Source: a virus
Lineage: Duplodnaviria; Caudoviricetes
DNA: 64,000 bases
Direction: 5' to 3' (one strand)
Virus record (IMG/VR): IMGVR_UViG_3300046318_000318
Shown: positions 7,391-51,377 of the stretch, one piece after another
How positions within the stretch are numbered: the first letter of the stretch is position 1
Layout of the letters: each line of letters opens with the position of its first letter
Notes under the pieces: model-generated
What the model saw: the letters and a program-made list of their open reading frames with translations, nothing else
The model's database searches: none
What the model was told of the DNA's origin: nothing
Made by a program: the position numbers and the translations under genes

Positions 7391-7437
7391 AAAAAAAAAA
7401 ATCATCCCCGGCCTGTGAAGGCTAGGGGGATGATTTT
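7391..7437 (-). terminator. Cassette terminator T1 (divergent member of the repeat family)
   Basis: A10-atcatccccggcctgtgaaggctagggggatgattttt, abutting the stop codon of ORF 7437..7760. Confidence 0.85.
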
Positions 7438-7760
7438 TACTTTCCAGCAGGACAATGACCTGTAAAGTCCAGTTCATAACCTTTGCCGGGGGTAATATTC
7501 ACTGTTGGATATCTCCATCCAACAGCGCGACCATAGTGGTCGCGAAAGAAGACATGTGCCCCCAGCTGTCGCTGGGTGTTGTATCGGGTCCACTCCGACC
7601 TGTCGATCAGGTAGACGTCGGCCGTCCCGCCATCGGGGAGTGATAAGCTACACTCCCCGCTACCGTCGTCAACCCCACCCCAATCTTCGCCGTCGTCCCA
7701 CTCCTCGGCAAATGACGAGAAGAATGGAACTGTAATTTTTATGTTAGAATTTGCGTACAT
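7437..7760 (-). CDS. Cassette 1 cargo: acidic hypothetical protein
   Basis: 107 aa, GC-richer than flanks, strong AGGAG SD, preceded by a structured leader. Confidence 0.75.
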   Translation of the reverse strand: MYANSNIKITVPFFSSFAEEWDDGEDWGGVDDGSGECSLSLPDGGTADVYLIDRSEWTRYNTQRQLGAHVFFRDHYGRAVGWRYPTVNITPGKGYELDFTGHCPAGK

Positions 7761-7810
7761 GACTATCTCCTGTTAACCTGTATTCACGATATGCGAACTT
7801 GAACAGGCTA
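7761..7810 (-). promoter_or_regulatory. Internal copy of the structured leader (no promoter motif upstream)
   Basis: Transcript AGCCUG-UUCAA-GUUCGC-AUAUC-GUGAAU-A-CAGGUU-AACAGGAG; same two-stem, 5x1 loop architecture as the cassette leaders. Confidence 0.65.
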
Positions 7811-7896
7811 ATAATCCCTTTTTGCTGGCCAAGCGTCAGGGCAGGTTTTGGCCCAACTATTTATTTAAAGAGGTTAGTTGTCAACCTCTTGGGAAG

Positions 7897-7983
7897 TCAG
7901 CGACGTGTCGTCACTGCTTCCCAAATGATGAAAGGCGTTGTGATCGCCGCAAAGGCGATCACTGCAATGTCAATCATATCCAT
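7897..7983 (-). CDS. Cassette 1 first cargo: 28-aa hydrophobic peptide MDMIDIAVIAFAAITTPFIIWEAVTTRR
   Basis: ATG at the same SD spacing (GAGGAG-TACATT-ATG) as in the other cassettes; below the ORF-track cutoff. Confidence 0.65.
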   Translation of the reverse strand: MDMIDIAVIAFAAITTPFIIWEAVTTRR

Positions 7984-8078
7984 AATGTACTCCTCAGCTG
8001 ATAGCTAGATCAAAAACAATCTATTAAACTACAGCTATACATCAAGTTAAGTATATATGACTGAAATCTTTTACAAGG
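7984..8078 (-). promoter_or_regulatory. Cassette 1 putative early promoter + structured leader + SD
   Basis: CTTGTAAAAGATTTCAGTCATATATACTTAACTTGA...AGCTGTAG-TTTAA-TAGATT..GATCTA-G-CTATCAGCT-GAGGAG; near-identical to 11971..12064. Confidence 0.85.
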
Positions 8079-8252
8079 TCAAGAAAGCACTCTAGCTTCT
8101 CTCACAGAAGATATCATCCTATACCCACCCATGCGCAAAGGTTTGGTAGGTTCTGTATAGATCTCCAGAACTTTATCTTCCTTCTTGGCCTGCTCGATAA
8201 GCTCACTCACCACTTTTTCAAACTCTTCACGGGTCTTGATATTTTCAAACAT
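8079..8252 (-). CDS. Small hypothetical protein (57 aa, MFENIKTREEFEKVV...)
   Basis: Hand-translated ORF directly downstream of sbcC with an AAGGAAAG SD. Confidence 0.55.
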   Translation of the reverse strand: MFENIKTREEFEKVVSELIEQAKKEDKVLEIYTEPTKPLRMGGYRMISSVREARVLS

Positions 8253-8263
8253 GATTCTTTCCT

Positions 8264-10762
8264 TTACATTAAAGCAGGTTCAGTAAAATCTACACAGTTG
8301 TTATACCCACAACCTTTAGGTATCACCACGTTGTTAGGACATAGTACCACCACGTCTGCATTGGCTATACTGCCATAGCTGTCTTCATAATGGGATATTA
8401 GAAAGACTTGACTATGATTAGAGTTAGTCATCAGGTCAGTTACGGTGTTGAAAGCTGACTTTCTGTGAGCAGAATCCATGTTAACGGAAAACTCATCTAA
8501 GAACAAAGGTGCCTTATCCAGCTTTAGGTATTTCATAGACACTCTCATGAAAGCCATGTCTATCACTTCCTTCATAGCAGATGATCCCAGACTTACATCA
8601 GAGATATCGTTCTTATCATTGACTTTGACTTGAAACTTATAATCAAGTTCTAATTCATCGTCTAGTTGAAAGACAGGTTGTATCTCAAGAGGATATAACC
8701 AGACTTTCTTGATAATAGCGTTCATCTGTATAACGAAATGATTGATGAAGTTAATCAACCCTTTAGCGATAAGTCCTTCAGTAGGACTTAACTCTTTGAG
8801 CATGATCTTATACACTTCAGCCTGTTCTTGATACTCAGCTATCTGTTTCTCTATAGAGGTAAGCAGAGCTGCTTGGATATCTATCCTGGACACCATCTGA
8901 GTCAAACTAGCCAGTTCAGACTTAACCAACCTGATACAAGAAGTTATAAAATCTTGGCTAATAGTTTTCTCTATGTCTCTTACAGCTGAGCTATGGGCTG
9001 TCTGTAGATTAAACAGCTCTTGTTTCTTGAGATCTAGATTTTCTACGATGGCTATAGACTTAAGTAAGGATTGTTCTTTTACTTTGCTTCTTCTGATTTT
9101 TACCTGATAGTCCTGAGCAGACAGTTCTAATTTAGCATACTTGATCTTAAGGGCGGATAGGTCGTTACTTTGATTCTCAGCTGTGATCTGTTTGATCTTA
9201 GATAATTCAGCTAACTTATCTATAGAGAGATTGAGTTGTTTCTGTTTGTCCAGTTCCTGACTGTATGTCTGGATCATCTGTCTTACGCCTATAGGAGCCG
9301 TTCTCAGAGAACCATAAGACATGATGTGTTTCCACATGCTGTCTAAAGCTTCTACTTGTGTCATGAGTTTAAGAAACTGACTCATCAAAGTTAGATATTC
9401 AAACTGTTCAGCTTTTACACTCTCTAACAATTTAATCTGAAGTTCCAACACAGGTATGTCTTTATCCAATATTTCTCTGGATCTCAAACATTCATCATAC
9501 AGAGACTGAGAGAAACCTTTGAACCAAGTATGTTTACAGTTAGGGCAGCTAACTTCGTTATGTTGTTTAGCGTGGTCGTACTCCTTTAACTGAGTAAAGA
9601 GTTTATCAGAAGCAAATCTGGTGTTGTTAAGCTTCAGATTAAGATCTGCCAAAGCCTGAACATTACTCTGATAGCTTTCTTTTGTGTAACCTTTGTTAGC
9701 ATGCTTATACATCTCTGTCAGATACTCATCTAACTGAGGTTTAACAGAAGATAAAGCAGCAGATACAACATCAGGGTTTTTAACAATAGGGAAACTCAGT
9801 TGTTTATGCAACTGATCTATTTCATCTTGTATAGACTTAAGGCTCACATCTAGATCTTGAAAAGAAGCTAAGTTGTTCTGTTCCAACATGGATATAGACT
9901 TGCTCTGTTCATCCATCTCTTGATAGACCTTATGCAGAAGAGTCTCTAAAGACTTGATATCTGATTTAACAAATAACAAATCATCGAGTATTTCTTGCTT
10001 ACCCACATAGTTTTCTGGATTAATAAACTTGTTTCTATCTTGAACAGTATCTGTAGCTGCTTTCCTAAGTTTGAGCTGTATGGTATCAAAATCAGAAAGT
10101 GTGCTTGCCTTTAAGATAGACTGATCTGTTTGAGAAAGCAATCCGTCTAAGAACATGTTCAAATGACGTATGTCTTCTCTGTATTTGATATGCTCTTGCT
10201 CATTAGGCAGCTTGTTAGTCTCCTGCACTAATCTAGCTTGCTGTAGTTTGACAGCTCCTTGTATATCTCGGTACTGTTCTTTAAGCTTGTTGTAGAAACC
10301 TATAGCAAAGGTGTAATCACAATCAGCTATCTGGGTAAACCACTTTCTTCTCTCAGCCACAGACATCTTACTGAACTTAACTCTACCTGTCATAAGCCCA
10401 TGTACATCTGGAGTGATGTTAAACTCTTTTCTGACAAGTTCTTTAAACACAGTTACTGTGTGTCCAGGATTAAGCTCTTCCCCATCTTTACAAAAAGAAA
10501 ACTTATTACCCAGAGCTGTGAAGTCACTCTTTAAGGTATAGGTGCTTCCGTTGTGCTGGTAGGTTATATGTTTGTAACCTGACTTCTTATACTCAGAAGC
10601 TTCAGCAGGCAGAGGGCTCAATTCTTTAATCAAGCTGCTTTTACCAGATCCGTTACTACCAAGAATCAGCTGTATTTTTTTATCTGGGCTGTATTTGAAA
10701 TACTCTATAGAGTTCAAAGACATTCTCTCGTAGCCTTTAATCACCACTTCTTTTATCTGCAT
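8264..10762 (-). CDS. sbcC: SbcC/Rad50-like SMC ATPase (phiKZ gp165-like)
   Basis: Walker A GSNGSGKS, CPNC zinc hook in coiled coil, signature SLGSSAM, Walker B LFLDE. Confidence 0.9.
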   Translation of the reverse strand: MQIKEVVIKGYERMSLNSIEYFKYSPDKKIQLILGSNGSGKSSLIKELSPLPAEASEYKKSGYKHITYQHNGSTYTLKSDFTALGNKFSFCKDGEELNPGHTVTVFKELVRKEFNITPDVHGLMTGRVKFSKMSVAERRKWFTQIADCDYTFAIGFYNKLKEQYRDIQGAVKLQQARLVQETNKLPNEQEHIKYREDIRHLNMFLDGLLSQTDQSILKASTLSDFDTIQLKLRKAATDTVQDRNKFINPENYVGKQEILDDLLFVKSDIKSLETLLHKVYQEMDEQSKSISMLEQNNLASFQDLDVSLKSIQDEIDQLHKQLSFPIVKNPDVVSAALSSVKPQLDEYLTEMYKHANKGYTKESYQSNVQALADLNLKLNNTRFASDKLFTQLKEYDHAKQHNEVSCPNCKHTWFKGFSQSLYDECLRSREILDKDIPVLELQIKLLESVKAEQFEYLTLMSQFLKLMTQVEALDSMWKHIMSYGSLRTAPIGVRQMIQTYSQELDKQKQLNLSIDKLAELSKIKQITAENQSNDLSALKIKYAKLELSAQDYQVKIRRSKVKEQSLLKSIAIVENLDLKKQELFNLQTAHSSAVRDIEKTISQDFITSCIRLVKSELASLTQMVSRIDIQAALLTSIEKQIAEYQEQAEVYKIMLKELSPTEGLIAKGLINFINHFVIQMNAIIKKVWLYPLEIQPVFQLDDELELDYKFQVKVNDKNDISDVSLGSSAMKEVIDMAFMRVSMKYLKLDKAPLFLDEFSVNMDSAHRKSAFNTVTDLMTNSNHSQVFLISHYEDSYGSIANADVVVLCPNNVVIPKGCGYNNCVDFTEPALM

Positions 10763-10851
10763 GTCTATCCTTTTAGGCTTTATACATCTGATTTATCTGA
10801 GTCTTAAAGAAATATCAGAGTTTATTTTGTGATGTTAAACAAGGATTTAAA

Positions 10852-11721
10852 ATGATAACTGAGTCAAAGTTAAAACTGTACTCTCTGGGCATCGTAGTGC
10901 AAACTAAGCCAGATGACACAGATATGATAAAAGTAGTCCCTATAGAAGAATACTCTTATGTAGACGGTAAACTGTCTGAACATAAAGAAGAGTTCAAAGC
11001 TGACTACAAAGATATGTCAGGTACTATAAAGAAAGCATCTGCTGAAAGTTCAGTGATCATAGAAGCCAGATGGTTTCCTTTTGCACATAGTAACCGCATC
11101 ACATCTCCTGATGTGGTAGTGAACGAAACAGTGATTATCTTTAGCTATGCCGATACAGATAAGTACTATTGGACGACTATCTATAGAGAACCTAAACTAA
11201 GAAGACTAGAAAGAGTTTTATACGCTTTCAGTAATCTGGCTACAGGTATAACCAAGAGAGCTTTTGATAAGCTATCTAGTTACTGGTATGAGGTAAGTAC
11301 TAAAGACAAACATATTTGGTTAAAGACTACGAAGTCTGATGGTGAACCTTTTGAGTATGATGTGAAGATAGATACCAGAAAGGGTTATGTAGAGGTAAAG
11401 GATGATGTGGGTAACTACTATGTGTTGGACAGCCCTAGTAACACCATCACTATAAATGCCTTAGAGAAGATACATCTTAAAGCTCCGTTTATACACTTTG
11501 AAGCAAGCGAAAGAGTATTAACCACAGCTCCTAAGATAGATGAGAAAGGTGATGAGATCACTGAGACTGCTGGTGGTGGTATCACCAATACTGCCGGTGG
11601 GACAATTACTGAAAGAGCCGGTAAAGTGTTGTGTGACACACCTATAGTGGAAAACACAGGTGAGGAATATACAGCTGGAGCTTCTAGAGCTAATCCGCAT
11701 ATCTGCGCAGTAGACTGCTAA
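10852..11721 (+). CDS. Baseplate central spike (phiKZ gp164-like; OB fold + beta-helix)
   Basis: Divergent from sbcC; C-terminal ITETAGGGITNTAGGTITERAG beta-helix repeats; ends PHICAVDC. Confidence 0.65.
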   Translation: MITESKLKLYSLGIVVQTKPDDTDMIKVVPIEEYSYVDGKLSEHKEEFKADYKDMSGTIKKASAESSVIIEARWFPFAHSNRITSPDVVVNETVIIFSYADTDKYYWTTIYREPKLRRLERVLYAFSNLATGITKRAFDKLSSYWYEVSTKDKHIWLKTTKSDGEPFEYDVKIDTRKGYVEVKDDVGNYYVLDSPSNTITINALEKIHLKAPFIHFEASERVLTTAPKIDEKGDEITETAGGGITNTAGGTITERAGKVLCDTPIVENTGEEYTAGASRANPHICAVDC

Positions 11722-11723
11722 AC

Positions 11724-11768
11724 AAAAAAAAATAACACCCCCGGCCTGTGAGGGCTAGGGGTGTTATT
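11724..11768 (-). terminator. Cassette terminator T2
   Basis: aataacacccccggcctgtgagggctaggggtgttatt with A-tract; identical to T6. Confidence 0.85.
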
Positions 11769-11769
11769 C

Positions 11770-11970
11770 TCACGAAAACGCCAGATAGGGTTTTCGTGAA
11801 AAGACCCGGACCCCGTCCTCGCGGACGAAACTCCAGGTTTTCCTAACCATACACTTTTTGTACCGGGTTTCCCCGGTTTTAATGCTTTTGCTCATCCGCG
11901 CAGCTGCGCGGAGAGCGTACCCCGCAGCATAAAATGCTGCGGTGGTTTCACGACGGGTCATGTGTTCCAT
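11770..11970 (-). CDS. Cassette 2 cargo: small basic hypothetical protein
   Basis: 66 aa, Arg/Lys-rich, GAGGAG SD, stop abuts T2. Confidence 0.7.
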   Translation of the reverse strand: MEHMTRRETTAAFYAAGYALRAAARMSKSIKTGETRYKKCMVRKTWSFVREDGVRVFSRKPYLAFS

Positions 11971-12064
11971 AATACACTCCTCAGCTGATAGCTAGATCAA
12001 AAGCAATCTATTAAACTACAGCTATGTATCAAGTTAAGTATATGTGATTGAAATCTTTTATAAG
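11971..12064 (-). promoter_or_regulatory. Cassette 2 putative early promoter + structured leader + SD
   Basis: CTTATAAAAGATTTCAATCACATATACTTAACTTGA...GCTGTAGTTTAATAGATTGCTTTTGATCTAGCTATCAGCTGAGGAG. Confidence 0.85.
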
Positions 12065-12075
12065 CCGAATAAAAA

Positions 12076-12105
12076 ACTCTATACCAGCCTAGGCTGGTAT
12101 AGAGT
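12076..12105. terminator. Perfect 30-bp palindrome/terminator centred on CCTAGG
   Basis: actctataccagcct|aggctggtatagagt. Confidence 0.75.
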
Positions 12106-12113
12106 AATTCTTT

Positions 12114-14291
12114 TTAACCGTACAGGTAAACTGCACCGTAACCAGCTTGAGCTATAGGAGTAGCTGTCTTGGTTAAACCAGGATCTCTACCCCAAGCACC
12201 CACAGCCATCTCTTTAAGATCATCAGAAAGAGATACCTCGACACCAAACTTTTCGTTGTTGCCGATAGCTGAGTCAGGGAATACACGAGCTACTTCAGTC
12301 CACATACCAGTGACATCACTCTTCTTGAAGATATAAAGCATGCCTGCATCAGTACCTTTGGTGTCTTCATATTCAGCACCTACAGCGATGGTCTTACCGT
12401 TAGGAGAAACCCACACACTTCTACCGAAATGAGAATACTGACGCTGTCCGCTAGGGGTCAATTTCTGACCTCTGACATAGGCACCGTTGATATAGTCCCA
12501 AAGCTCTACATATCCATAACCATCACTATACTGGATATTTTTAGCAGCCATTTGGTCGGTTATCCATGTATTTGTATTAGGAGCTAATACACCGCGACAA
12601 GCAGCAGCTAACAACTTACCGTCCGAAGACATGTTCTGAACAGAGTTACCTAAATGACCGTAATGATCAGAGTGCCTGGGTGTAGAACTCTTCAACGTTT
12701 GGATCAAAGTAAACTGACCAGAGCCATTGTCTTTATACACATGCAAGGCACCCATCCAAGACACAGGGTATTGAGTTGGATTTGTATATGTAGCGGACTC
12801 ATCTAAAGTATCAAAAACAGAAATGGTTCTGCCATCTCTAGATATAGATACACTACCTGTGTTCTCAAGTGTATTAGGTATAGTGAGTGTTTGGCTCAAT
12901 ACCCAATCAGAGGCTGTCTTTCTATAAACCAAAGCTCTAGCGTTAGTACCAGCTGTGTTAAAGATCCAAGGTGTGTTCCATCTCTGTTTATAAGCTGCGC
13001 CATAAAAGCTATCAGCTATAACCAATACAGCGCCATCACCAGAAATCTTCACATCTGCATCTAGGGGGTATTCTTTAAAGTTGCTATTCAGGGAAATAGT
13101 TTTGTTCAAAGACCACGTATTGGAACCTGACACTCTGTTATAGATCTCTACAGCTGTGGTGCCATCTAAGTTAGCAGATTGTGAGACAGGCGTGGAATAA
13201 GAGAAATTAGCTTGAGTAAACTCAGAACCATAGAACTTATGCTCACCCAAAGTCAACACACCACCATCATAGCTAAGAGAAGCTTTGATAGCGCCTGATG
13301 TACCGGTGGGTCTTTGTATACGCTGTACATGAGACCAGGTACCACCTGACTTCACATACATATCAGCATAGTCACCACCAGACTCATGGTTACGATTAGC
13401 AGCTAAGTTAACATCACGTTTGTTACTGGTGGTTACCATGACTTGTCCGTCACCAGACAAAACCACGTTAGCACCATAGCCCTCACCAGCAGATGCAGTA
13501 TAACCTGCTTTGCTATTAGCTGTAACTATTTGCTTCTCTGTTATGGGAAGAAAAATAGTCTTGGTGGAGAACTGAACAATATCGCTATAACCAGATGCAC
13601 CAGAGTTAACACCTGTGTGTTTAGCTCTTACATAGTAAGTGGCATTCTCAGACAAACCTGTTACAGTCCAACTGATCTTATTAGCGCTGCTATTAATAGC
13701 TTCGCCAATCAACGTGTTAAAGTTGATATCACTAGATACTTGCCAAGATGAGGAGCTGTGAGTATCTGTGCCACCCACCACATCAAAAGGAGCAGTTACA
13801 AAAGTAACATCCCCACCCAGATTGTTGGATAGATTAACAGGAGATTGAATAACAGGTTTGTTAATCAAAGTCTGACCAACAGCTATATCAAACACTCGGT
13901 CGTTGATCCTAAAGCCTGCGATGCCATTAGCACCAGGTGCTGTATAGGTGATCACATCTTCTACACGACTTACAGTACCAGTTATGGCAGAGATACTGTA
14001 ACTGGTAAATGTATCATAGTTGGTGATGGTGTAAGTAGCTACCTGATTGGAGTTCAATAGAACAGGACCTTGGATACTGATAGTATCAGCATCTATAAGG
14101 TCTATAGGTAATCTACCCAAAGCGTCTAGACCGGCGATACCCCCAGGCCGATTGATCATCGACCTGTGGATACCACCAAGATTTTGCACAGCTGTTAAGT
14201 CTGTAGTGGCGTCAGTGCCGCCTTCATTGATACCCAGGACTCTGTCCAGAGCCCCGAGGTTCGCTGAAGGTCCTTGCAAATTACGAGGCAT
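12114..14291 (-). CDS. Tail fibre/appendage protein with Fn3-like domain and C-terminal FG-GAP-like beta-propeller
   Basis: Fn3-like segment (GLSENATYYVRAKH); repeats such as SHFGRSVWVSPNGKTIAVGA and EKFGVEVSLSDD; N-terminus shared with 16649 and 53167. Confidence 0.65.
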   Translation of the reverse strand: MPRNLQGPSANLGALDRVLGINEGGTDATTDLTAVQNLGGIHRSMINRPGGIAGLDALGRLPIDLIDADTISIQGPVLLNSNQVATYTITNYDTFTSYSISAITGTVSRVEDVITYTAPGANGIAGFRINDRVFDIAVGQTLINKPVIQSPVNLSNNLGGDVTFVTAPFDVVGGTDTHSSSSWQVSSDINFNTLIGEAINSSANKISWTVTGLSENATYYVRAKHTGVNSGASGYSDIVQFSTKTIFLPITEKQIVTANSKAGYTASAGEGYGANVVLSGDGQVMVTTSNKRDVNLAANRNHESGGDYADMYVKSGGTWSHVQRIQRPTGTSGAIKASLSYDGGVLTLGEHKFYGSEFTQANFSYSTPVSQSANLDGTTAVEIYNRVSGSNTWSLNKTISLNSNFKEYPLDADVKISGDGAVLVIADSFYGAAYKQRWNTPWIFNTAGTNARALVYRKTASDWVLSQTLTIPNTLENTGSVSISRDGRTISVFDTLDESATYTNPTQYPVSWMGALHVYKDNGSGQFTLIQTLKSSTPRHSDHYGHLGNSVQNMSSDGKLLAAACRGVLAPNTNTWITDQMAAKNIQYSDGYGYVELWDYINGAYVRGQKLTPSGQRQYSHFGRSVWVSPNGKTIAVGAEYEDTKGTDAGMLYIFKKSDVTGMWTEVARVFPDSAIGNNEKFGVEVSLSDDLKEMAVGAWGRDPGLTKTATPIAQAGYGAVYLYG

Positions 14292-14658: not shown

Positions 14659-15336
14659 TTAGGGTGTGTTAAACTGATTAAAAAACATAACCAGTTGTCT
14701 GAGAGTGATGTACTTCTCTACTGGAGCAGCAGACAATACTTCGGCATCGGAAGCCACAGGTAAGTTTTGAACATTACCCAAACCCACTACGATCTTATCT
14801 GGTGCTGGTCTGTTAAGAATCTGAGTGGCGATACCATTAATAGCCGTAATCAGTTCTAGATGTCCGTAAACATAATCTAAGTTCTGATCGTGGTTAATAG
14901 GTGGAAAAGCACTGGGTTTGTCTGTGACGACATCCCAGACTGTGGTTCTTGGGTTATAGGCCATAGTGGCCAATCTCTCAAGAACATAATTATAATTAGC
15001 TGTCCATTCACCGCCGATAGTCTGATACGTTACTCGTAGAGTGCCGTTGGGGAAGTCAGTGTTAAAACTGATGCCGCCATACAGCATTTTTCCGATAGAT
15101 CTAGCCGCTCCTATATACGGTAGAGTAAGCATGTAATGCTGGTTCTCTACCATAGGTGTAATCACACCACCTGGACCCTCGTGTGAAACACTGAGATTAT
15201 CCAGATAAAATGGTGCGAAATTAGGGATTATGATCCTATAACGCGAATTGTTGACTTCGGTAAAAGTGTGTAGCTCATTAACGATTTTGTTACTGAGCAA
15301 TAGGCCAGTCGTGTCTAAAGGGTACGTTGACGGCAT
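14659..15336 (-). CDS. Virion tail/baseplate protein, YPLDxTG family (likely start MPSTY at 15336)
   Basis: YPLDTTG...N.I..E N-terminus shared with 55136..56218. Confidence 0.65.
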   Translation of the reverse strand: MPSTYPLDTTGLLLSNKIVNELHTFTEVNNSRYRIIIPNFAPFYLDNLSVSHEGPGGVITPMVENQHYMLTLPYIGAARSIGKMLYGGISFNTDFPNGTLRVTYQTIGGEWTANYNYVLERLATMAYNPRTTVWDVVTDKPSAFPPINHDQNLDYVYGHLELITAINGIATQILNRPAPDKIVVGLGNVQNLPVASDAEVLSAAPVEKYITLRQLVMFFNQFNTP

Positions 15337-15381
15337 AAAAGTTCTTCCTGAAGTTGACCATCCGATTTGGAGAAACAAGAA

Positions 15382-20131: not shown

Positions 20132-20142
20132 TCAGAGCATAG

Positions 20143-20174
20143 TCCTATACCAGACCCTAGGGTCTGGTATAGGA
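20143..20174. terminator. Perfect 32-bp palindrome, bidirectional terminator
   Basis: tcctataccagaccct|agggtctggtatagga between convergent genes. Confidence 0.75.
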
Positions 20175-29315: not shown

Positions 29316-29358
29316 AAAAAAAATAACACCCTGGCCTTTTGGGCTGGGGTGTTATTTT
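29316..29358 (-). terminator. Cassette terminator T3
   Basis: aataacaccctggccttttgggctggggtgttatttt; identical to T5. Confidence 0.85.
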
Positions 29359-29363
29359 AATTC

Positions 29364-29852
29364 TTATTTACTCAGGAGTTGTTTCAACTCCGTGATGTCT
29401 TTGGCAATACCGCCAGATCCATCCCAGGAATCACCTAGGAGCTGGATCATCGACGACAACCCAACCGCCCCTGTGGGAATTCCCAACAGGGTCAGTAGAT
29501 TGTTTTGGGTAGTCTTGACAAAGACCCCCTCATTACCACTCTTGTAGCGCTCATGGACACATACGTGCCCGTATTCGCTACCTTGGACAATCAAGAGCCG
29601 ATTAGTCTCCCAATCATAGGAGACGTACATGTCTCCGTCATTAATCTTCTCATACAGGACACCATCATAGTATCCCGTACCATTTGCCCACTCTTGGCGA
29701 TAAACCAGGATTTTGTTTTCTTTAACAAGTCTTTGACAGTGTCGGTAAAACACTGTCCCTGCTTCTGTCGTCGGAATGCGACCATTATTGTACAGGGTTT
29801 CATTGCCCTCACCCCAAAAGGTGAAAACGAATTTTTCGAATGTCTGTGCCAT
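29364..29852 (-). CDS. Cassette 3 cargo: hypothetical protein
   Basis: 162 aa, GC-richer, AAGGAG SD. Confidence 0.75.
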   Translation of the reverse strand: MAQTFEKFVFTFWGEGNETLYNNGRIPTTEAGTVFYRHCQRLVKENKILVYRQEWANGTGYYDGVLYEKINDGDMYVSYDWETNRLLIVQGSEYGHVCVHERYKSGNEGVFVKTTQNNLLTLLGIPTGAVGLSSMIQLLGDSWDGSGGIAKDITELKQLLSK

Positions 29853-29946
29853 GAGTATCTCCTTAACTGATAGTGTCGCAGAAAGAACGACTTAAACCAC
29901 AGCGATAGCTCAAGTTAAGTGTACGTGATTGAAATATTTTCTAAGG
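29853..29946 (-). promoter_or_regulatory. Cassette 3 putative early promoter + structured leader + SD
   Basis: CTTAGAAAATATTTCAATCACGTACACTTAACTTGA-GCTATC-GCTGTGG-TTTAA-GTCGT..GCGAC-A-CTATCAGT-TAAGGAG. Confidence 0.85.
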
Positions 29947-29980
29947 CGAGAAAAAGAAAAACACCGAGGTGTTTTTCTTT

Positions 29981-32161: not shown

Positions 32162-32180
32162 CTAAAGTAAATGTTACCAA

Positions 32181-33818: not shown

Positions 33819-33836
33819 GTTACATTCCTTTGTTGG

Positions 33837-35063: not shown

Positions 35064-35135
35064 AAGTTCCTCTTTTTAAAAGTTGATTAAGCTCTTTGAG
35101 ACAGAGCGGTCAATTAAAGTATGTGTGACTAACGA
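35064..35135 (-). promoter_or_regulatory. Variant early-promoter-like motif upstream of the nvRNAP operon
   Basis: GTCACACATACTT resembles cassette core (A/G)TCACATATACTT, followed by hairpin GCTCT-GTCTCAA-AGAGC and SD AAGAGG. Confidence 0.5.
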
Positions 35136-35151
35136 TAGATACAAACAGAAC

Positions 35152-35196
35152 AAAAAAAAAATAACACCCCCGGCCTGTAAGGGCTAGGGGTGTTAA
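35152..35196 (-). terminator. Cassette terminator T4
   Basis: ataacacccccggcctgtaagggctaggggtgtta; one substitution from T2/T6. Confidence 0.85.
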
Positions 35197-35197
35197 T

Positions 35198-35223
35198 TTA
35201 CGCCTCGATCACGCTCCAGCCAT
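35198..35223 (-). pseudogene. Collapsed cargo of cassette 4 (reads MAGA-stop)
   Basis: AAGGAGATAATC-ATG GCT GGA GCG TGA TCGAGGCG TAA, then terminator immediately. Confidence 0.65.
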
Positions 35224-35316
35224 GATTATCTCCTTAACTGATAGTGTCGTAGAAAGAACGACTTAAACTACAGCGATAGCTCAAATAGAATATATGTGAT
35301 TGAAATTATTTACAAG
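35224..35316 (-). promoter_or_regulatory. Cassette 4 putative early promoter + structured leader + SD
   Basis: CTTGTAAATAATTTCAATCACATATATTC...GCTGTAG-TTTAA-GTCGT-TCTTTCT-ACGAC-A-CTATCAGT-TAAGGAG; near-identical leader to cassette 3. Confidence 0.85.
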
Positions 35317-35371
35317 AACTTATTTAGAAAAAAGATACACACAGCCTCATGGCTGTGTGTATTTTAATCTA

Positions 35372-39517: not shown

Positions 39518-39583
39518 AATATTTTACTAAGGATGAATTGAGACGACTAATCTATATAACTTTAGTCTAAATAAAAAAGGGAA

Positions 39584-39619
39584 AAAAGAAAAGGACCCCC
39601 GGAAGGGTCCTTTTCTTCT
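39584..39619 (-). terminator. Terminator after major capsid gene
   Basis: aagaaaaggacccc-cgga-agggtccttttctt with A-tract. Confidence 0.75.
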
Positions 39620-39648
39620 ATTAGAGGCAATATTACTATCGCCTAAAC

Positions 39649-44063: not shown

Positions 44064-44108
44064 AAAAAAAAATAACACCCTGGCCTTTTGGGCTGGGGTG
44101 TTATTTTT
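44064..44108 (-). terminator. Cassette terminator T5
   Basis: Identical to T3. Confidence 0.85.
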
Positions 44109-44109
44109 A

Positions 44110-44751
44110 TCAGCAGAGCACAGGCTGCTGAGAAGCTTTGAACTTCTCACGCATAGCTTGTACTCGCTCTTCTAACGACTCCAGAATTTCTGGATGGCCC
44201 AGAAGAGTGTCCGTCATTACCTGACGAATTTCCATCAAAGCGTAATACGCTTGTTGGAAACCAACCACAGATGCTGCGTAAGCATCTGCTTCCAGCTCAA
44301 AACGTTGAACGGATTTTGTTAATCCAGCATTTTCAAGACGGAACATATGCTGGTCTTTGAGATGGCCAAACTCATGTTCCGTGATGAACCTCAGTGTCTC
44401 TTCGGTATAGAGACCTTTCATGGTCAATACCAGATCGACCTTACCGATCGACATGGTCATCCCACCACCGAAATTTTTAACAAGCTCTGTGAGGTTTGTC
44501 ACAAAGACTTTCCCTGTTACAGGATGTCTTACCATAGTGGTCAGCCAATACCAATTTGGCATCTCGACCCACTTCACTTTTCTCCCGTTAGGGAGCTTGG
44601 CGGTCTTGCACCACCAAGTGGTGCAGCAGATGGTCAGGACAAGCCTGACCACTTGACTCTCCTTCAACCGGTCCCCGAACAGGGACCAACCGGTGGTCAA
44701 AGCCACAGCCGTGAAGAAAGTAACGCCAAGTACCAAAGAAAACTGTTCCAT
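44110..44751 (-). CDS. Cassette 5 cargo: membrane-anchored HExxH zinc metalloprotease (M48/M56-like gluzincin)
   Basis: N-terminal TM; HEFGH plus downstream ELEAD; SD spacing indicates start MEQFS at 44751. Confidence 0.7.
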   Translation of the reverse strand: MEQFSLVLGVTFFTAVALTTGWSLFGDRLKESQVVRLVLTICCTTWWCKTAKLPNGRKVKWVEMPNWYWLTTMVRHPVTGKVFVTNLTELVKNFGGGMTMSIGKVDLVLTMKGLYTEETLRFITEHEFGHLKDQHMFRLENAGLTKSVQRFELEADAYAASVVGFQQAYYALMEIRQVMTDTLLGHPEILESLEERVQAMREKFKASQQPVLC

Positions 44752-44843
44752 AACTATCTCCTTAGTCACAAGTTCGAAAGATGTTTCGATTAAACTGTAA
44801 CGATAGTCAAGTTAAGTATATGTGACCAAAATACTTTATAAGG
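44752..44843 (-). promoter_or_regulatory. Cassette 5 putative early promoter + structured leader + SD
   Basis: CTTATAAAGTATTTTGGTCACATATACTTAACTTGA...GTTACAG-TTTAA-TCGAAA-CATC-TTTCGA-A-CTTGTGAC-TAAGGAG. Confidence 0.85.
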
Positions 44844-44896: not shown

Positions 44897-45820
44897 ATGA
44901 ACGGTAAACTATATCAAGAAGAACAAAGTACAGCTTCTTCTAATGGTAAAGAGTACGATCTAAATATTCTATTTAAGAGAATTAAGAATAAACAATCTAT
45001 AGACATACCTATTGATAAACTCATATGGGTGTTAGAATATACAGTTATAGACGAACTAAGAGTTAAAAACGCTGATGTCTCAATTCCTATATTGATTTAC
45101 AATGACAAAAAAGATGGATATGTGACTATAGACGGAGCGCACAGACTGACCAAAGCTTTTAGATTAAAGATGAAAGTTATACCTGGTGTGATGTTAAGTG
45201 ATGAGGATATGGAAGCAGCTGAGATAAATAAAAAGAAAATAGCTTTGCTATCCGATAGTAATAATGTTTGGCAAATAGATTTTGGTCCTTCTTACACACC
45301 CAAAGAGATGTTAGAACTGGGTGTTTTTGAAGGTAAGTATGTCAACAACGTGAAAGGCATACCAGCTGACTGGAAGAAAAGTGATAAAGTATTAGGCTCT
45401 GATGATGAACCTGATCCCAGTGTTAATAAGTACGGAGTTAAATCAAGACAACCTTTATCAGTTTGGAAAAAGAACGATTGGATAAAAACAGACCCTAACG
45501 GATGGTTCGCTTGGTACTGTAATTATTATCTAGGTAGAAGACTAGGTGAAGAAGATGAATGGCAGATCAAACGCTGGAGAAGTTTTGTAGCTAGACATCA
45601 GGCTCAGATCAAAGCAGATCCCAAAGGACATCTTAAAGACAGACGCTTAGCTCAAAAGCAAGGTTTGTTACAATGGGCGTGGGATTGGGAACAGAACTTC
45701 ACTGATAAGAACGTAACTATCAACGCTAAAAGAATAGCTAAGTCTGCTGGCGCTAAGCTAGATAAAGAAGAACCAGCTTTAGAAAATATGATTCTGCCTG
45801 CTTTTGCCAGGTGGATTTAA
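44897..45820 (+). CDS. ParB/sulfiredoxin-like domain fused to a conserved Trp-rich domain of unknown function
   Basis: IDGAHRL ParB-like motif; FEGKY, DPNGWFAWYCNYYLGRR; C-terminal ALE...PAFARW. Confidence 0.6.
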   Translation: MNGKLYQEEQSTASSNGKEYDLNILFKRIKNKQSIDIPIDKLIWVLEYTVIDELRVKNADVSIPILIYNDKKDGYVTIDGAHRLTKAFRLKMKVIPGVMLSDEDMEAAEINKKKIALLSDSNNVWQIDFGPSYTPKEMLELGVFEGKYVNNVKGIPADWKKSDKVLGSDDEPDPSVNKYGVKSRQPLSVWKKNDWIKTDPNGWFAWYCNYYLGRRLGEEDEWQIKRWRSFVARHQAQIKADPKGHLKDRRLAQKQGLLQWAWDWEQNFTDKNVTINAKRIAKSAGAKLDKEEPALENMILPAFARWI

Positions 45821-45874
45821 ATATCAAATAGATCATATGCTCTCACCCTTTTCCATAACACGTAAGGTTTACAA

Positions 45875-46399
45875 ATGGCTAACGTTTTAAATTTCTCTAA
45901 AGTAACTGCACTGCCTGTTACTTTCAGTCCTTCCACTCTGTACCTTATTCCAGGTACCCTACCTGATGAGATGCATGTATATGTGTCTGATTCTACCGGT
46001 ACTTCTGTTAAGAAGATAATCGACAGAGATGACATCATCGGTCTGATTAACACCACAGCTCCCGCTGACAACATTGTCGGCATCATTAATTGCTTTGGTT
46101 CTAATGAGGTTGTTGCTACTGGTAATTACGTTGGGTTTTTAAATGCTCATAAAGTCTTTACCTTTGATAAAGTACGTGTGAGTCTTCGCACCCATAGCGC
46201 AGATGCTGATATTAACTTCACTCTTGAATCCAATATGGATCCAGCTTTTGCAGTAGGTACTTTACTAGCAGGTAATAAAACAGCTGAGTTAACAGGTCTT
46301 AACTACACCACGACTCTCAATGAGACTATCACTGTCTCTATAGCAAGCACAACCAATACCACAGGTAAAGGTTTGATAGCTCTTTTGATTAAATCATAA
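45875..46399 (+). CDS. Tail-cluster-type protein with LxFxKV N-terminal module
   Basis: N-terminus shared with 62008 and 62496 ORFs. Confidence 0.55.
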   Translation: MANVLNFSKVTALPVTFSPSTLYLIPGTLPDEMHVYVSDSTGTSVKKIIDRDDIIGLINTTAPADNIVGIINCFGSNEVVATGNYVGFLNAHKVFTFDKVRVSLRTHSADADINFTLESNMDPAFAVGTLLAGNKTAELTGLNYTTTLNETITVSIASTTNTTGKGLIALLIKS

Positions 46400-46411
46400 T
46401 CAGACATAAAC

Positions 46412-47432: not shown

Positions 47433-47729
47433 TTAAGTAGCTACCGGGTAAGGTATGTGTGGATGTGGGTCGTATCCTTCCAGTTCAATATCTTCAGATT
47501 TGATCTTAAAGATATCTGTCTCGTCTGTTTTAAAGACAAGTCGTGGAAGAGATCTGGGCTCACGAGAGATTTGTTCATCTACCAAATGCAATTGATCTGT
47601 GTAGATATGTGTATCTCCAGTAGACCAAATGAACTCATTAGGTTCCATATCAACATGTCGGGCAATCAAATGCAACAGCAATGAATACTGAGCTATGTTG
47701 TAAGGGCTCCCTATAGGTGTATCGACTGA
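47433..47729 (-). CDS. thyA: Thymidylate synthase exon 2
   Basis: SVD..IGSPYNIAQYSLL, GDTHIY, YDPHPHIPYPVA; joins exon 1 in frame as QR|SVD. Confidence 0.92.
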   Translation of the reverse strand, partial: SVDTPIGSPYNIAQYSLLLHLIARHVDMEPNEFIWSTGDTHIYTDQLHLVDEQISREPRSLPRLVFKTDETDIFKIKSEDIELEGYDPHPHIPYPVAT

Positions 47730-48861
47730 CATTAATTAACTTCGGTGTGGTAAAACCAATCTTTGTATTTATCCTTTTTAACCCTGTGTGTCACTAAACC
47801 TTGCGATATTTTGAAATATCTAGAAGCATCAGCACATGAGTTAAAAAGAATTCCACCTGCAAATACCTTACGAGTGTTTGTTGGTGGGATACCTATTCTG
47901 TTTTCCCTAAGTTTTCTTTTTGTTTCTTCAGTATGTTTTCTATTGAAGAAAGAATTCTTAGAACCGGTTCTTAAACGTTGACGTGCTCTGATTTTTTCAA
48001 TTTGTTCTTCAGAAAGTTTACAACCTTTGTTGTAGCTATGACCTTTATGCATTAAAGATATAAGCTTTCTGGTTTCAACTGAATGTTGTCTTCCAAACAT
48101 TCCATTAGCTGAACCATTTTTACCCCAAAGGTTTTTTCTTTCTAAAACAGACATTGACGCTATATTTTTAGCTTGTGTTTTGTTTCTTCTGTCTAATATG
48201 TCATCACGTTTTGGATGATTAGATAAAGAATTGCCAAATTTAGAATTTAAACTTATATTAGCCAGTAGGTTTTTATTCAGACCTGTGTATGACTTTATTA
48301 TAAGCTTTTCCTCTAATTGAAAAGCTTCTTCCCTAGAACTACACGGAATAGAGGAAACTTTATAATCAGTTCCTTCACACCATGCTTCTTGTAAACGCAG
48401 ATTATGGTGATTGTTTCTTTTCAACGACCTAAAATGAGTTCGAAGTCTTTTCTTTAAATTTGACGTACTACCTATATAAAACACACCTGTTTTTGTTAAT
48501 GTGAGTATATAAACACAAAAATCATTACTGTTCATATAGATTCCTCGTTAGGATTACCATATAATGAACACAGCACTGCTTTACATCTCTGTAAAGATAG
48601 ATCATATCACCACCTTCAGCCTTACCTGTTAAGGGTTCCCCGTTTCGAAGCGATTCACATCGGTTCTACGTCTTTCGACTGATCGTTGAACTTTCTCCAG
48701 TTTAAAGGAGCTTAGCTGCTGATTGTCTCTACCTACTAATTTTCAAACACGTTACGTATGTGTTTTCACACTCCGCTTTGGTTTAGTAGTCTAACAAGGG
48801 TTTCCAGCAATTAGAGGAATTTTCAAATAGGTATTTCTACCTATACAGCGCTCAGTTATTA
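47730..48861 (-). ncRNA. Group I intron in thyA
   Basis: P1 CAGCGU/GCGCUG with U.G at the splice site; P10 ACUGA/UCAGU; P AAUUGCUGGAAA, Q AAUCAGCAG, R UCAACGAUCA, S GAUAUGAUCU (P7 GAUCA/UGAUC); P9 CUUUACA-GAGA-UGUAAAG; terminal G at 47730. Confidence 0.9.
47732..48535 (-). CDS. Intron-encoded GIY-YIG homing endonuclease
   Basis: CVY-x10-YIG, KKRLRTH, FQLEE, NUMOD3-like HSVETRKLIS/HTEETKRKL, C-terminal HTH. Confidence 0.9.
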   Translation of the reverse strand: MNSNDFCVYILTLTKTGVFYIGSTSNLKKRLRTHFRSLKRNNHHNLRLQEAWCEGTDYKVSSIPCSSREEAFQLEEKLIIKSYTGLNKNLLANISLNSKFGNSLSNHPKRDDILDRRNKTQAKNIASMSVLERKNLWGKNGSANGMFGRQHSVETRKLISLMHKGHSYNKGCKLSEEQIEKIRARQRLRTGSKNSFFNRKHTEETKRKLRENRIGIPPTNTRKVFAGGILFNSCADASRYFKISQGLVTHRVKKDKYKDWFYHTEVN

Positions 48862-49710
48862 ACGCTGGAACATAAGTAGGTTCAAACGCTTCTTACCACC
48901 TTCATTGAGAGCAGGTTGTACAAAGCATTGGAACATAACATGGCATGGTGCCAAAGCACCCATACCCAACAATACATTCAGATCAGGAGAAATCTTATTG
49001 TCAGGAATGAATTGTGGTAACCATGAGCTTACCACAAGACGTGAAGAATAAGGATTGTTTTTCAGTTCAGCCAGAAGAATACCTAATTGATCTACCTTAG
49101 AGACATAAGTCTTCTGAATGAAATCAGTCTCTGTGACGGGATCTGTTCCATCATCTTCTGCTTCTTTATAAGCAAGATATTCTTTATAAGCTTCTTTAAA
49201 AGCTTCTACTTTATCAGAAGGAATATCTTCGATAGGTGGTTTGTTTCTGAGAAGTTGGTGAATGTTACTCATCTCATCAGCAGGGGCATGGCGCCAGTTA
49301 AAGCCGTACAAAGGACCGATAGATCCGATACGCTCACTGATCTGTTCACGAAGTTTAGCCATGAGCATTTCATTACCGGCCATACTCTGACGATCTTCTT
49401 CTGATTCAAACTTAGACAAGAAATATTCCATGAACTTATCCACTGTTTTTTCAGTGACAGCCCAGTTATCCCAGATATGCACATTTGCTTCATTCAGCAA
49501 AGTGTTATCAATCTCACCAGCGATAAACCAAAGCAATTCTTCTTTCATACCTCGAAAGAAGATCTTACGAGTAGTGACCAAAGGAAAACCATCACTCATG
49601 TTGAATCGGACTTGTCTACCGAAGATAGATCGACGACCTACGCCGGTACGATCGGGATGATCATGTCCATTGTCACGGATATCCTTGAGGAGTTCTATAT
49701 AAGTCTTCAT
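48862..49710 (-). CDS. thyA: Thymidylate synthase exon 1
   Basis: DRTGVG, EELLWFIAG, HIWDNW, GPLYG..WR, SRLVVSSW, ALAPCH, ends MFQR. Confidence 0.92.
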
Positions 49711-50042: not shown

Positions 50043-50330
50043 TTAGTTAAAGTAAAGATTGACGACAAGAGCTGCAAAAATAGAACTTGTTATCGCCAGT
50101 GCAATAAGCATTCTTCTGACATTATCCAGCTGTTCCTGAAGAGCGTAGACGCTATTGCCCAATGATTCTAGTTTGAGGTTGGTACCTGCTTCAACAGTCG
50201 ACGCGTTGGTTTGGAGAATTATCAGCTTCGACTCCAGGTCTGTGATAGCTTTATTCAATTCTTCTTTACTAGCTGCTAAAGGTTTAGTTGTGGTGTTGCC
50301 GTTTGCTTCTTCAATAATGAGGTTTTCCAT
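50043..50330 (-). CDS. Coiled-coil protein with C-terminal membrane anchor
   Basis: Heptads then MLIALAITSSIFAALVVNLYF. Confidence 0.6.
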   Translation of the reverse strand: MENLIIEEANGNTTTKPLAASKEELNKAITDLESKLIILQTNASTVEAGTNLKLESLGNSVYALQEQLDNVRRMLIALAITSSIFAALVVNLYFN

Positions 50331-50340
50331 GATTGTTTCC

Positions 50341-50802
50341 TTAGGTTAAAAAACGTTTCCATTCATAAGGCATCCAGCATCTCTCTATGCCTTTAAACAT
50401 AGGAGCTATCTGCTCATGCTTATATCCAGCTAACCCTGTGCCTACCGCTGTGACAAAAAAAGTTTTGTCTTTGAGTATAGTGGTTACTATTCTAAAGGTC
50501 TCTACTCTTTTCTCTATTTCTTCTAGCGGTAGAGGTTGCAGCATATGTGACTTAGTAGGTAAGGCATAACAGTTACCCATTCTACCCTCACCTACACCGT
50601 AGATAGCTCCATAGTCTGTAGCAGCTTTAAGAGCAGCACCTTTACCATGTCTACCAGCTAGGTTAGAACCAAATACAAAAAGTATACTTGGGTAGAGGAT
50701 AATGTTGTTCTCAGGAAAGTAATATTTGACACCTTTTTCAATAGGTAGAAGTACAGTGTCATACTTCTTCATCATCTCAAAATCTATTTCAAAATTTGAC
50801 AT
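50341..50802 (-). CDS. Macrodomain-like protein
   Basis: FVFGSNLAGRHGKGAA and VTAVGTGLAG resemble the two glycine-rich macrodomain loops. Confidence 0.6.
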   Translation of the reverse strand: MSNFEIDFEMMKKYDTVLLPIEKGVKYYFPENNIILYPSILFVFGSNLAGRHGKGAALKAATDYGAIYGVGEGRMGNCYALPTKSHMLQPLPLEEIEKRVETFRIVTTILKDKTFFVTAVGTGLAGYKHEQIAPMFKGIERCWMPYEWKRFLT

Positions 50803-50839
50803 ATTTGTTTTCCATAATCAAAAAATGAAAGCTGTGAAT

Positions 50840-50883
50840 AAAAAAATAACACCCCCGGCCTGTGAGGGCTAGGGGTGTTATTT
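50840..50883 (-). terminator. Cassette terminator T6
   Basis: Identical to T2. Confidence 0.85.
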
Positions 50884-50884
50884 A

Positions 50885-51283
50885 TCAAGCTTGATGTGTG
50901 ATCCAAGCTTGAAGAGCCTGACCCATGGCCAGCTCTTCAGCACGTCCTGATCTCACATCAGGGAACTTTACATGGACCATGAACCACTTGATCGTGGCTC
51001 CTTCGGGCAATGTGGTTGCCCCTTCGGGCAGTCGTGGTCCAGAATATTGACCAACAATGATTGTCTCATTGCTGGTCAGGTCCACGGTCACCCGTGCAGC
51101 GGGGATTTCCACCCCCAGCTGCTGAGAAAATACAGAAGCTGTGTCGGCATGACCGACACAGCTTTCCACCCCTACCTCCAAAAACTCCTTGACTTCAGCC
51201 GGAGTGATTTGGATCACTTTGATGTCGGCGATGAGCGCCGACACCATGTTGAGACTGAAAGCGTTGCAAATTTTAATTGCCAT
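50885..51283 (-). CDS. acrIII-1: Cassette 6 cargo: DUF1874/AcrIII-1-like cyclic oligoadenylate ring nuclease
   Basis: NAFSLNM, SCVGHADTA (catalytic GH), LGVEIPAARVTVDL, GPRLPEG, as in the STIV B116 / SIRV1 gp29 / YddF family. Confidence 0.75.
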   Translation of the reverse strand: MAIKICNAFSLNMVSALIADIKVIQITPAEVKEFLEVGVESCVGHADTASVFSQQLGVEIPAARVTVDLTSNETIIVGQYSGPRLPEGATTLPEGATIKWFMVHVKFPDVRSGRAEELAMGQALQAWITHQA

Positions 51284-51377
51284 GAGTATCCCCTTAACCA
51301 GCAGTGTTACAGATGTGTAACTTAAACCACTAGCGATATCTCAAGTTAAGTTTATGTGATTGAAATATTCTCTAAGG
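51284..51377 (-). promoter_or_regulatory. Cassette 6 putative early promoter + structured leader + SD
   Basis: CTTAGAGAATATTTCAATCACATAAACTTAACTTGA...CTAGTGG-TTTAA-GTTACA-CATC-TGTAAC-A-CTGCTGG-TTAAGGGG. Confidence 0.85.

Follow-up and report, generated by a model that had tools for sequence, protein, structure and literature searches.

Promoter, leader and terminator cassettes with variable cargo, dispersed among the core genes of a chimallivirus-like freshwater phage

Six loci on the minus strand of a 64,000-nucleotide (nt) stretch of the virus record IMGVR_UViG_3300046318_000318 (Duplodnaviria; Caudoviricetes), referred to below as the window, were found to share one layout: an upstream arm of ~100 nt, a cargo, and a terminator of ~45 nt belonging to a single sequence family. 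The upstream arm itself has two layers, a promoter of ~38 nt followed by a leader of ~57 nt. We call these loci cassettes and their positions slots, and number arms, cargos and terminators (T1 to T6) after them. Their parts, with open reading frames (ORFs) given by length in amino acids (aa), are listed here.

7391..8079, minus strand: cassette 1, with upstream arm 8079-7984 (promoter 8079-8042, leader 8041-7984)
7983-7897, minus strand: ORF1a of cassette 1, a 28-aa hydrophobic peptide
7890-7868, minus strand: hairpin between ORF1a and ORF1b
~7818-7761, minus strand: promoter-less leader-like element directly ahead of ORF1b
7760-7437, minus strand: ORF1b of cassette 1, a 107-aa ORFan
7436-7391, minus strand: terminator of cassette 1
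11724..12066, minus strand: cassette 2, with upstream arm 12066-11971, ~90% identical to arm 1
11970-11770, minus strand: cargo of cassette 2, a 66-aa ORFan
11768-11724, minus strand: terminator of cassette 2, identical to T6
29316..29947, minus strand: cassette 3, with upstream arm 29947-29853
29852-29364, minus strand: cargo of cassette 3, 162 aa
29358-29316, minus strand: terminator of cassette 3, type B, like T5
35152..35317, minus strand: cassette 4, empty, with upstream arm 35317-35224
35223-35221, minus strand: ATG of cassette 4, followed by three codons and a TGA at 35211-35209
35199-35152, minus strand: terminator of cassette 4
44064..44843, minus strand: cassette 5, with upstream arm 44843-44752
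44751-44110, minus strand: cargo of cassette 5, a 213-aa membrane HExxH protein, Peptidase_M48/CapP-like
44107-44064, minus strand: terminator of cassette 5, type B
50840..51378, minus strand: cassette 6, with upstream arm 51378-51284
51283-50885, minus strand: cargo of cassette 6, a 132-aa DUF1874/AcrIII-1-like protein
50884-50840, minus strand: terminator of cassette 6

Profile searches with nhmmer revealed exactly six full upstream arms (E 3e-19 to 8e-27) and exactly six terminator arms (E 1e-17 to 2e-12) in the 64 kb, all on the minus strand, and no orphan upstream or terminator arm in the window. Repeat finding likewise recovered 6/6 upstream arms and 6/6 terminators. A 26-nt core motif of the arm gave five minus-strand matches at ≤3 mismatches, with 0 expected in shuffles; the sixth copy, in slot 4, has at least four mismatches and was recovered by the profile search. 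Six minus-strand loci with a repeated upstream element of ~95 bp and a repeated terminator of ~40 bp had been proposed in a preliminary description of this DNA, and the motif, repeat and profile searches confirmed them all, with no extra copy. The proposed pairing of the repeats was also correct: T2 is identical to T6 over 43 nt, T3 shares 98% identity with T5 over 46 nt, and the closest leaders and arms are those of cassettes 1 and 2 (88% over 116 nt) and of cassettes 3 and 4 (87% over 98 nt). The six cargos were mutually unrelated by blastp and, as the same description had it, richer in G + C (47-54%) than the neighbouring genes (37-45%) and the window as a whole (41%).

Two cassettes depart from the one-gene layout. 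Cassette 1 has two ORFs rather than one. Cassette 4 is empty; its predicted RNA of ~100 nt would consist of leader plus terminator, and it could be either the remnant of a cargo deletion or a small RNA in its own right. The empty slot 4 junction recurs in a contig of another run (X10).

Megablast against cultured phages found zero DNA matches for the window. At the protein level, phiKZ-like phages gave the best or sole matches for NrdA, a virion protein, the divergent DnaB, DUF7194 and the major head protein, with 30-48% aa identity, and judged from these core-protein matches the stretch comes from an uncultured, chimallivirus-related (phiKZ-like) freshwater jumbo phage. It is present in 24 freshwater metagenome runs, all of which were used in assembled-contig form. 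The relatives compared were G001 (IMG/VR 3300021440_000015, 120 kb), collinear with window positions 4-55682 at 76-95% DNA identity; L050, a 201.5-kb Joint Genome Institute (JGI) contig 93-94% identical to the window; L053, L054 and L055, ~91% identical; L044/G004, with ~69-81% protein identity; and the distant relative G002 (IMG/VR 3300035670_000017), which has 29-47% protein identity and no DNA similarity to the window. The overlap of G002 with the window is confined to 245-6767, so none of the slots can be compared in it. The three closest cultured phages are LucasX, FLC9 and Xoo-sp14. The census of cassettes is based on the window, with six, and on the 120 kb of G001, with 10 full arms. 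A metagenome scan with the DUF7194 neighbour as query returned the G001 source contig alone.

The promoter, the first ~38 nt of the arm, reads CTTnTAAA, 3 nt, TTTCA, 1 nt and TCACATATACTTAACTTGA, and is conserved continuously over its length, TTAACTTGA included. The motif occurs six times in the window, at least 10 times in G001 and at least nine times in G002, co-oriented on one strand, and is absent from LucasX, FLC9 and Xoo-sp14. In G002 it stands ahead of many genes and is followed by unrelated 5′ hairpins, the conserved leader being absent. A sigma-70 reading of the arm was rejected: a scan of 7000-13000 left arms 1 and 2 unflagged and gave fewer matches than expected from shuffles. Jumbo phages that encode their own RNA polymerases have a lineage-specific, AT-rich early-promoter motif upstream of early operons, and the early promoter of 201phi2-1 is conserved at -10, -20 and -30 upstream of hypothetical genes (PMC7598289, PMC11512511, PMC8244752). 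The arm motif, being over-represented, long, AT-rich and co-oriented, fits the description of this class (PMC7598289, PMC11512511). By analogy, the promoter would be of the kind read by the chimallivirus virion RNA polymerase and active early. A weak promoter-like site (E ~1) without the conserved leader was found on the minus strand at 35107..35132, ahead of a 408-aa gene (35063-33837), and its position is conserved in G001 and L050. A freshwater metatranscriptome contig (run X24) matching 7858-8320 contains the end of an SbcC-like gene, a 57-aa ORF, arm 1 and ORF1a, and stops ~10 nt past the hairpin at 7890-7868; DNA carry-over is possible for this contig.

The preliminary description had treated the upstream element as one. 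The repeat is real, but it actually joins a family-wide promoter to a separate, covarying RNA leader, and the latter is limited to the lineage of the window (the window, G001, L050, L053 and G004). In 17 copies the leader has the same fold: a P1 helix of 4-6 bp, a G-C and U-A step, an unpaired UUAA, a P2 hairpin of 4-6 bp, and AC, with the UUAA bulge and the AC invariant. The 3′ strand of P1 ends 1-2 nt ahead of UAAGGAG, and AAGGAG, a spacing of 7-8 nt and ATG are present in all arm copies. Over the 12 pairs of the fold, 96.5% of alignment cells are paired, versus 23-52% with slid partners; nine of the 12 pairs change on both sides (45 cells), and the observed covariation score was reached by 0/500 shuffles. 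The minimum-energy structure shows the fold in 17/18 cassettes when 48 nt of the native cargo are included, and accessibility of the Shine-Dalgarno sequence (SD) and AUG is 0.56 with the native leader versus 0.43 with shuffled leaders (Wilcoxon p 2e-5).

The promoter-less element directly before ORF1b is a diverged copy of the leader. Its topology is that of the leader, the bulge reading UCAA or CUAA, and both helices are kept by compensatory changes in the window, G001 and L053. A covariance model scores it marginally (12 bits) and found no further leaders in the window and none in G002, LucasX, FLC9 or Xoo-sp14. Rfam has no family for the arms; weak Rfam matches at 29300-29410 were discarded as terminator-like chance matches. 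Because the helices covary, the fold forms in native contexts, the SD and AUG are more accessible and a copy exists without a promoter, we argue that the leader is likely to act at the RNA level, on translation initiation or stability, and not as part of the promoter. It may insulate or enhance translation initiation.

At the other end of the cassette, the terminator stems, each with a run of 7-11 T behind it, have predicted free energies of -16 to -22 kcal/mol, and their variants preserve the stem through compensatory changes. The window has about eight other intrinsic terminators, including those on the minus strand at 12076, 29955, 30259, 35333, 39041, 39587 and 60832. As each of these is unique in sequence, the terminator family is specific to the cassettes. 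Arms 2, 3 and 4 are directly preceded by such unique-sequence hairpins, and the conserved terminator sits 3′ of the cargo. In slots 1, 2, 3 and 5 the hairpin lies 2-11 nt past the stop codon of a convergent plus-strand core gene, these genes encoding DUF7194, a baseplate protein, a virion protein and the DnaB-like helicase. A shorter T run is found on the core-gene side of these hairpins too, so they probably stop transcription in both directions.

The slots were then compared among four relatives with 75-94% identical flanks: slots 3-4 in L050, slots 1-2 in L053, slots 1-3 in L044/G004, and slots 5-6 in G001 alone. The cargos are as follows.

Slot 1: 28-aa peptide plus 107-aa ORFan in the window; 30-aa peptide plus an unrelated 101-aa ORF in G001
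Slot 1, further relatives: as in the window in L053 (68% aa identity); an unrelated 113-aa ORF, with the peptide absent, in L044/G004
Slot 2: 66 aa in the window; 208 aa in G001; 109 aa in L053; cassette absent in L044/G004
Slot 3: 162-aa cargo in the window; same family in G001 and L050 (74-80% aa identity)
Slot 3, distant relative: same family elsewhere on the contig in G004, slot position not checked
Slot 4: empty in the window; 112-aa DUF1874 paralogue of cargo 6 (55% aa identity) in G001; 84-aa ORFan in L050
Slot 5: 213-aa cargo in the window; the same in G001 (92% aa identity)
Slot 6: 132-aa cargo in the window; same family in G001 (81% aa identity)

Slots 1, 2 and 4 each occur in three or more states, including unrelated ORFans, the DUF1874 paralogue, and an empty or absent cassette, between flanks that are 90-94% identical; the 66-, 208- and 109-aa cargos of slot 2 are mutually unrelated. 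The expectation that one slot would hold different cargo in related phages while its arms persist was thus borne out at slots 1, 2 and 4 and failed at slots 3, 5 and 6, which keep their cargo; that of slot 3 is kept in L052 as well. Homology between the window and G001 breaks at 7438 and 7766 in slot 1 and at 11768 and 11977 in slot 2, and homology between the window and L050 breaks at 35221, the ATG of slot 4, and at 35192, inside the terminator stem. In slot 6, identity to G001 falls from ~97% to ~65% in mid-cargo and returns to ~100% just past a differing terminator stem. The ORF1a peptide (7897-7983, minus strand) is 79% conserved at the aa level in G001 though the ORF following it is replaced, and may represent a small membrane protein or the product of an upstream ORF to which ORF1b is coupled.

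The arms themselves are mosaic. The same P2 hairpins, identical over 16-20 nt, occur with different promoters and different P1 helices, and the GTTACACATCTGTAAC hairpin is found behind three P1 helices and two promoter variants. In the window, arm 2 is closer to arm 1 (~90% identity) than to the orthologous arms of G001 and L053 (75%). In L050, the slot 4 arm joins a promoter and P1 of the slot 3 type to a g83074-type P2 and a slot-1-type terminator, and slot 4 of G001 retains its slot-specific promoter variant yet has a slot-6-type P2 with a slot-6-type cargo. The window T6 matches the paralogous T2, unlike its own G001 orthologue. Reassortment of the arms, as the preliminary description had put it, is therefore evident from these combinations of promoter, P1, P2 and terminator. 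Among informative sites, 687/1275 pairs were incompatible with a single tree, and compatible sites cluster, with a neighbour similarity score of 0.70 versus 0.46 on permutation (p<0.0002). Contig loose ends at 8032-8077, 11724-11768 and 12029-12069 were considered as rearrangement junctions and rejected; they reflect paralogous arms.

A gene for a UvsX-like recombinase lies in the window at 637..2046 on the minus strand (phrog_97, E 3e-32), where a UvsX had been noted previously, and is a candidate for homologous recombination from arm to arm; a gene for an SbcC-like nuclease subunit is also present in the window. We infer that UvsX-type machinery performs the recombination. No integrase or recombinase domain was found in the cargos or in the scanned slot-flanking and larger ORFs. 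The term integron-like, used for the cassettes earlier, has to be abandoned: they have no integrase or recombinase of their own and no attC-type site.

Cargo 6 matches Pfam PF08960 (DUF1874) with 32.5 bits against a cut-off of 26, and Csx16 with E 3e-9; its alignment to 2J6B and 2X4I keeps the GH(A/D)xT and PRLPEG motifs. Together with the G001 slot 4 paralogue, it belongs to DUF1874, the family of STIV B116, AcrIII-1 and the Csx16 ring nuclease. Compared with the AcrIII-1/Crn2/Csx16 proteins (PDB 2X4I, 2J6B), cargo 6 shares the domain and both motifs and differs by a C-terminal extension of ~27 aa and by its setting in a jumbo phage of the nucleus-forming type. Cargo 6 is a predicted AcrIII-1-type ring nuclease. 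Such a function makes biological sense because, according to the reference list of PMC13282480, a type III CRISPR system is effective against nucleus-forming phages. Cargo 5, the membrane HExxH protein, has weak similarity to M48 and CapP, and a protein atlas gave M48-like leads only. The remaining cargos of the window and its relatives are ORFans, and most cargos overall lack a Pfam, PHROG or PADLOC match. Homologue searches with cargo 3 and ORF1b found relatives of this phage only, the protein atlas had zero matches for cargo 3, and the structure model of cargo 3 was unusable (mean predicted local distance difference test score 43). In G004, a leader-bearing cassette (L058, ~1500-2300) drives a protein that, read by eye, looks like a MORN-repeat protein, so a cassette cargo can be large and repetitive. 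Most cargos may well act against the host. Of the counter-defence toolkit suggested earlier, one family, DUF1874/AcrIII-1, can be recognised, and the other cargos are ORFans or the M48-like peptidase; the label is plausible, with family evidence limited to DUF1874.

Taking together the observed architecture, the covariation of the leader, the turnover of cargo at fixed slots, the breakpoints at the arms and the mosaic arms, we consider it probable that the cassettes are expression sockets resembling promoter-early stem-loop (PeSL) cassettes and morons, whose arms, constrained by function, double as handles for homologous recombination that shuffles the cargo. Each locus would be a self-contained early transcription unit, mostly of one gene, beginning with a ~38-nt promoter of the virion-RNA-polymerase type. 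The leader would fold into P1, the GU/AC step, the invariant UUAA bulge and P2, ending 1-2 nt before an exposed UAAGGAG and AUG. An arbitrary, GC-richer accessory gene would come next, and then the intrinsic terminator of a single sequence family, which at convergent junctions would probably halt the facing core gene too. Because the expression function would keep the arms alike, the genome would possess 40-100 nt of portable homology at a dozen places or more. Recombination in or beside the arms, between co-infecting relatives or between sockets, could then replace, duplicate or delete a cargo and leave expression intact.

Several points weigh against this reading. Exchange between orthologous slots could use the homology of the flanking core genes, so that the arms would not be strictly needed; 3/6 slots (3, 5 and 6) are stable across relatives; and slot 4 of G001 sits within a larger divergent block (window 29934-35221). 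The recombination test may be inflated by hairpins inherited as blocks, a counter-defence role is known for one cargo family only, and every relative is a metagenomic contig from similar freshwater samples. The sole metatranscriptome contig (7858-8320) crosses arm 1 and does not begin in it. The first three of these points would equally suit ordinary early genes with arms kept alike by the needs of expression and cargo changing through illegitimate recombination or long core-gene exchange. Early promoters of chimalliviruses are indeed long, conserved and located ahead of hypothetical genes, and their terminators share motifs (PMC11512511, PMC8244752). We nevertheless regard this explanation as unlikely, since clean comparisons place the breakpoints at the ATG and the terminator stem, identical 16-20-nt P2 hairpins are combined with different promoters and P1 helices, with one arm a three-way mosaic, T6 equals the paralogous T2 and not its orthologue, and in slot 4 of G001 the DUF1874 paralogue has arrived together with a slot-6-type P2. 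Nor does functional constraint account for identity at stem positions that can covary freely.

There is a minor but real chance that the arms are primarily a post-transcriptional regulon, in which a phage or host factor binds to the leader and sets the timing or location of early-message translation or raises its level, with shuffling as a by-product. The unpaired nucleotides (G-UUUAA and AC) are invariant in 16-17 copies while the helices covary, the promoter-less copy within the cassette 1 message is kept with compensatory changes, and the leader always ends 1-2 nt before the SD, the accessibility of which is modestly raised. The binding factor, however, is only hypothetical, G002 has unrelated 5′ hairpins after the same promoter, and the leader is absent from the three closest cultured phages and has no Rfam match. 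Such a regulon is moreover compatible with recombining expression sockets and does not exclude them. More specifically, and doubtful as it must be considered, the leader (P1, the invariant G-UUUAA bulge, P2, AC and SD) might be a lineage-specific RNA adaptor through which a phage or ribosomal factor selects, times or routes the first messages of the injected polymerase. If so, any ORF captured behind this self-folding leader would be expressed, the phage would maintain a standardised plug-and-play module for expression and recombination, and the promoter-less copy ahead of ORF1b would show the module working inside a message too. It is very improbable that the cassettes are mobile elements in their own right (of homing, transposon-like or integron type) with a site-specific enzyme dedicated to moving them. 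The genome is rich in homing elements, namely a group I intron with a GIY-YIG endonuclease and the core-gene insertions of G001, but no cargo has a nuclease, transposase or integrase domain, the arms are promoter and terminator and not recombination sites, and the empty slot 4 retains both of them. Terminal inverted repeats and target duplications were not searched for, and none stood out in the aligned junctions. We rejected the integron or transposon reading because no recombinase is present in the cargos and scanned ORFs.

Other features were observed in the window and its relatives. A group I intron (Rfam RF00028, 48579-48871, 67 bits) interrupts the thymidylate synthase gene (47433-49710, minus strand), dividing it into exon 1 (48859-49710) and exon 2 (47433-47732), and an ORF for an I-TevI-like GIY-YIG homing endonuclease (47732-48535) is located between the intron core and exon 2. 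This arrangement parallels the td intron of phage T4 with I-TevI. In G001 the intron core is present and an 847-bp endonuclease segment is absent. The NrdA of G001 is 1148 aa long versus 814 aa, with an in-frame insertion of ~1.0 kb (G001 17724-18728 / L051; window ~37650, in nrdA 36490-38934) that looks like an intein or similar element and is absent from the window and L050. Two extra segments of G001, one of ~0.5 kb inside the DnaB-like helicase gene (G001 10207-10704; window ~43685) and one of ~0.9 kb beside the major head protein gene (G001 14818-15708; window ~39570-39667), are probably further introns or homing elements. Conversely, the segments 44899-45265 (366 bp) and 45823-46400 (577 bp) of the window are absent from G001 and have no cassette arms; the latter contains a 174-aa plus-strand ORFan. 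The C-terminal 1.4 kb (18723-20143) of a 1160-aa ORF (16649-20131) does not align with G001, and a 725-aa FG-GAP protein (12114-14291; segment 12217-13567) has a 244-aa version in L053. Both differences look like exchanges of modules in proteins that probably belong to the tail or recognise the host. Imperfect in-frame tandem repeats were found at 61141-61581 (21- and 39-nt units, in ORF 60871-61695) and at 31455-31579 (12-nt units, inside a 620-aa ORF at 30299-32161).

Sockets marked by promoter, leader and terminator offer a sequence-based way to find fast-turning accessory early genes in metagenomes, and the compact covarying leader is a candidate context-independent translation module. Many counter-defence genes are believed to await discovery in nucleus-forming jumbo phages. 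To date, according to a 2026 review, Tad1 is the sole anti-defence protein to have been described from jumbo phages (PMC13282480).

We found no description of such cassettes or of the leader in chimalliviruses in the open-access literature, in agreement with the preliminary description, which knew of none for the two-armed form. The early promoters of Chimalliviridae (phiKZ, 201phi2-1; PMC8244752, PMC11512511, PMC7598289) are likewise AT-rich, conserved over ~35 nt, co-oriented and placed before small hypothetical genes, and the transcription units likewise have terminators that share motifs. The motif sequence of the arms is lineage-specific, being absent from LucasX, FLC9 and Xoo-sp14, and those papers (PMC8244752, PMC11512511, PMC7598289) describe neither a conserved leader with two helices nor fixed slots with changing cargo. 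Integron gene cassettes are similar in that unrelated, interchangeable cargo occupies sockets supplied with a promoter; they depend on an integrase and attI/attC sites, whereas the units described here have neither, are dispersed and have a promoter each. Morons of lambdoid and other tailed phages, reportedly described by Juhala and co-workers in 2000 and by Hendrix and co-workers, are also stand-alone units of promoter, gene and terminator between core genes, with deviating G + C content and accessory functions. The cassettes resemble them in having their own promoter and terminator, a position between conserved genes and a deviating base composition. Morons are individually unrelated and expressed from the prophage by the host polymerase, whereas the cassettes have homologous arms and would belong to a lytic early programme.

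The closest parallel drawn earlier was with the PeSL cassettes of T4-type phages (Arbiol et al. 2010, PMC2839356; Comeau et al. 2014, PMC4122927), and it holds in part. In both systems repeated composite motifs (early promoter, stem-loop terminator, SD and ATG) flank ORFans, close relatives differ by insertions, deletions and replacements located at the motifs, and homologous recombination between motif copies is the proposed mechanism. In the cassettes of the window, the motif ends at its 3′ side with the SD and start codon and is mostly followed by an ORFan, and insertions, deletions and replacements of cargo between relatives map to the arms in slots 1, 2 and 4. The parallel does not extend to the promoter, which has a sigma-70 consensus in PeSL and here is not sigma-70-like and presumably read by the virion RNA polymerase. 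PeSL fuse promoter and terminator and are packed in hyperplastic arrays, whereas here one gene separates the promoter from the conserved terminator, the units are scattered one by one between core genes, and a covarying structured leader is added. The cassettes would thus extend the PeSL idea, that regulatory motifs double as recombination handles, to a phage group with its own polymerase.

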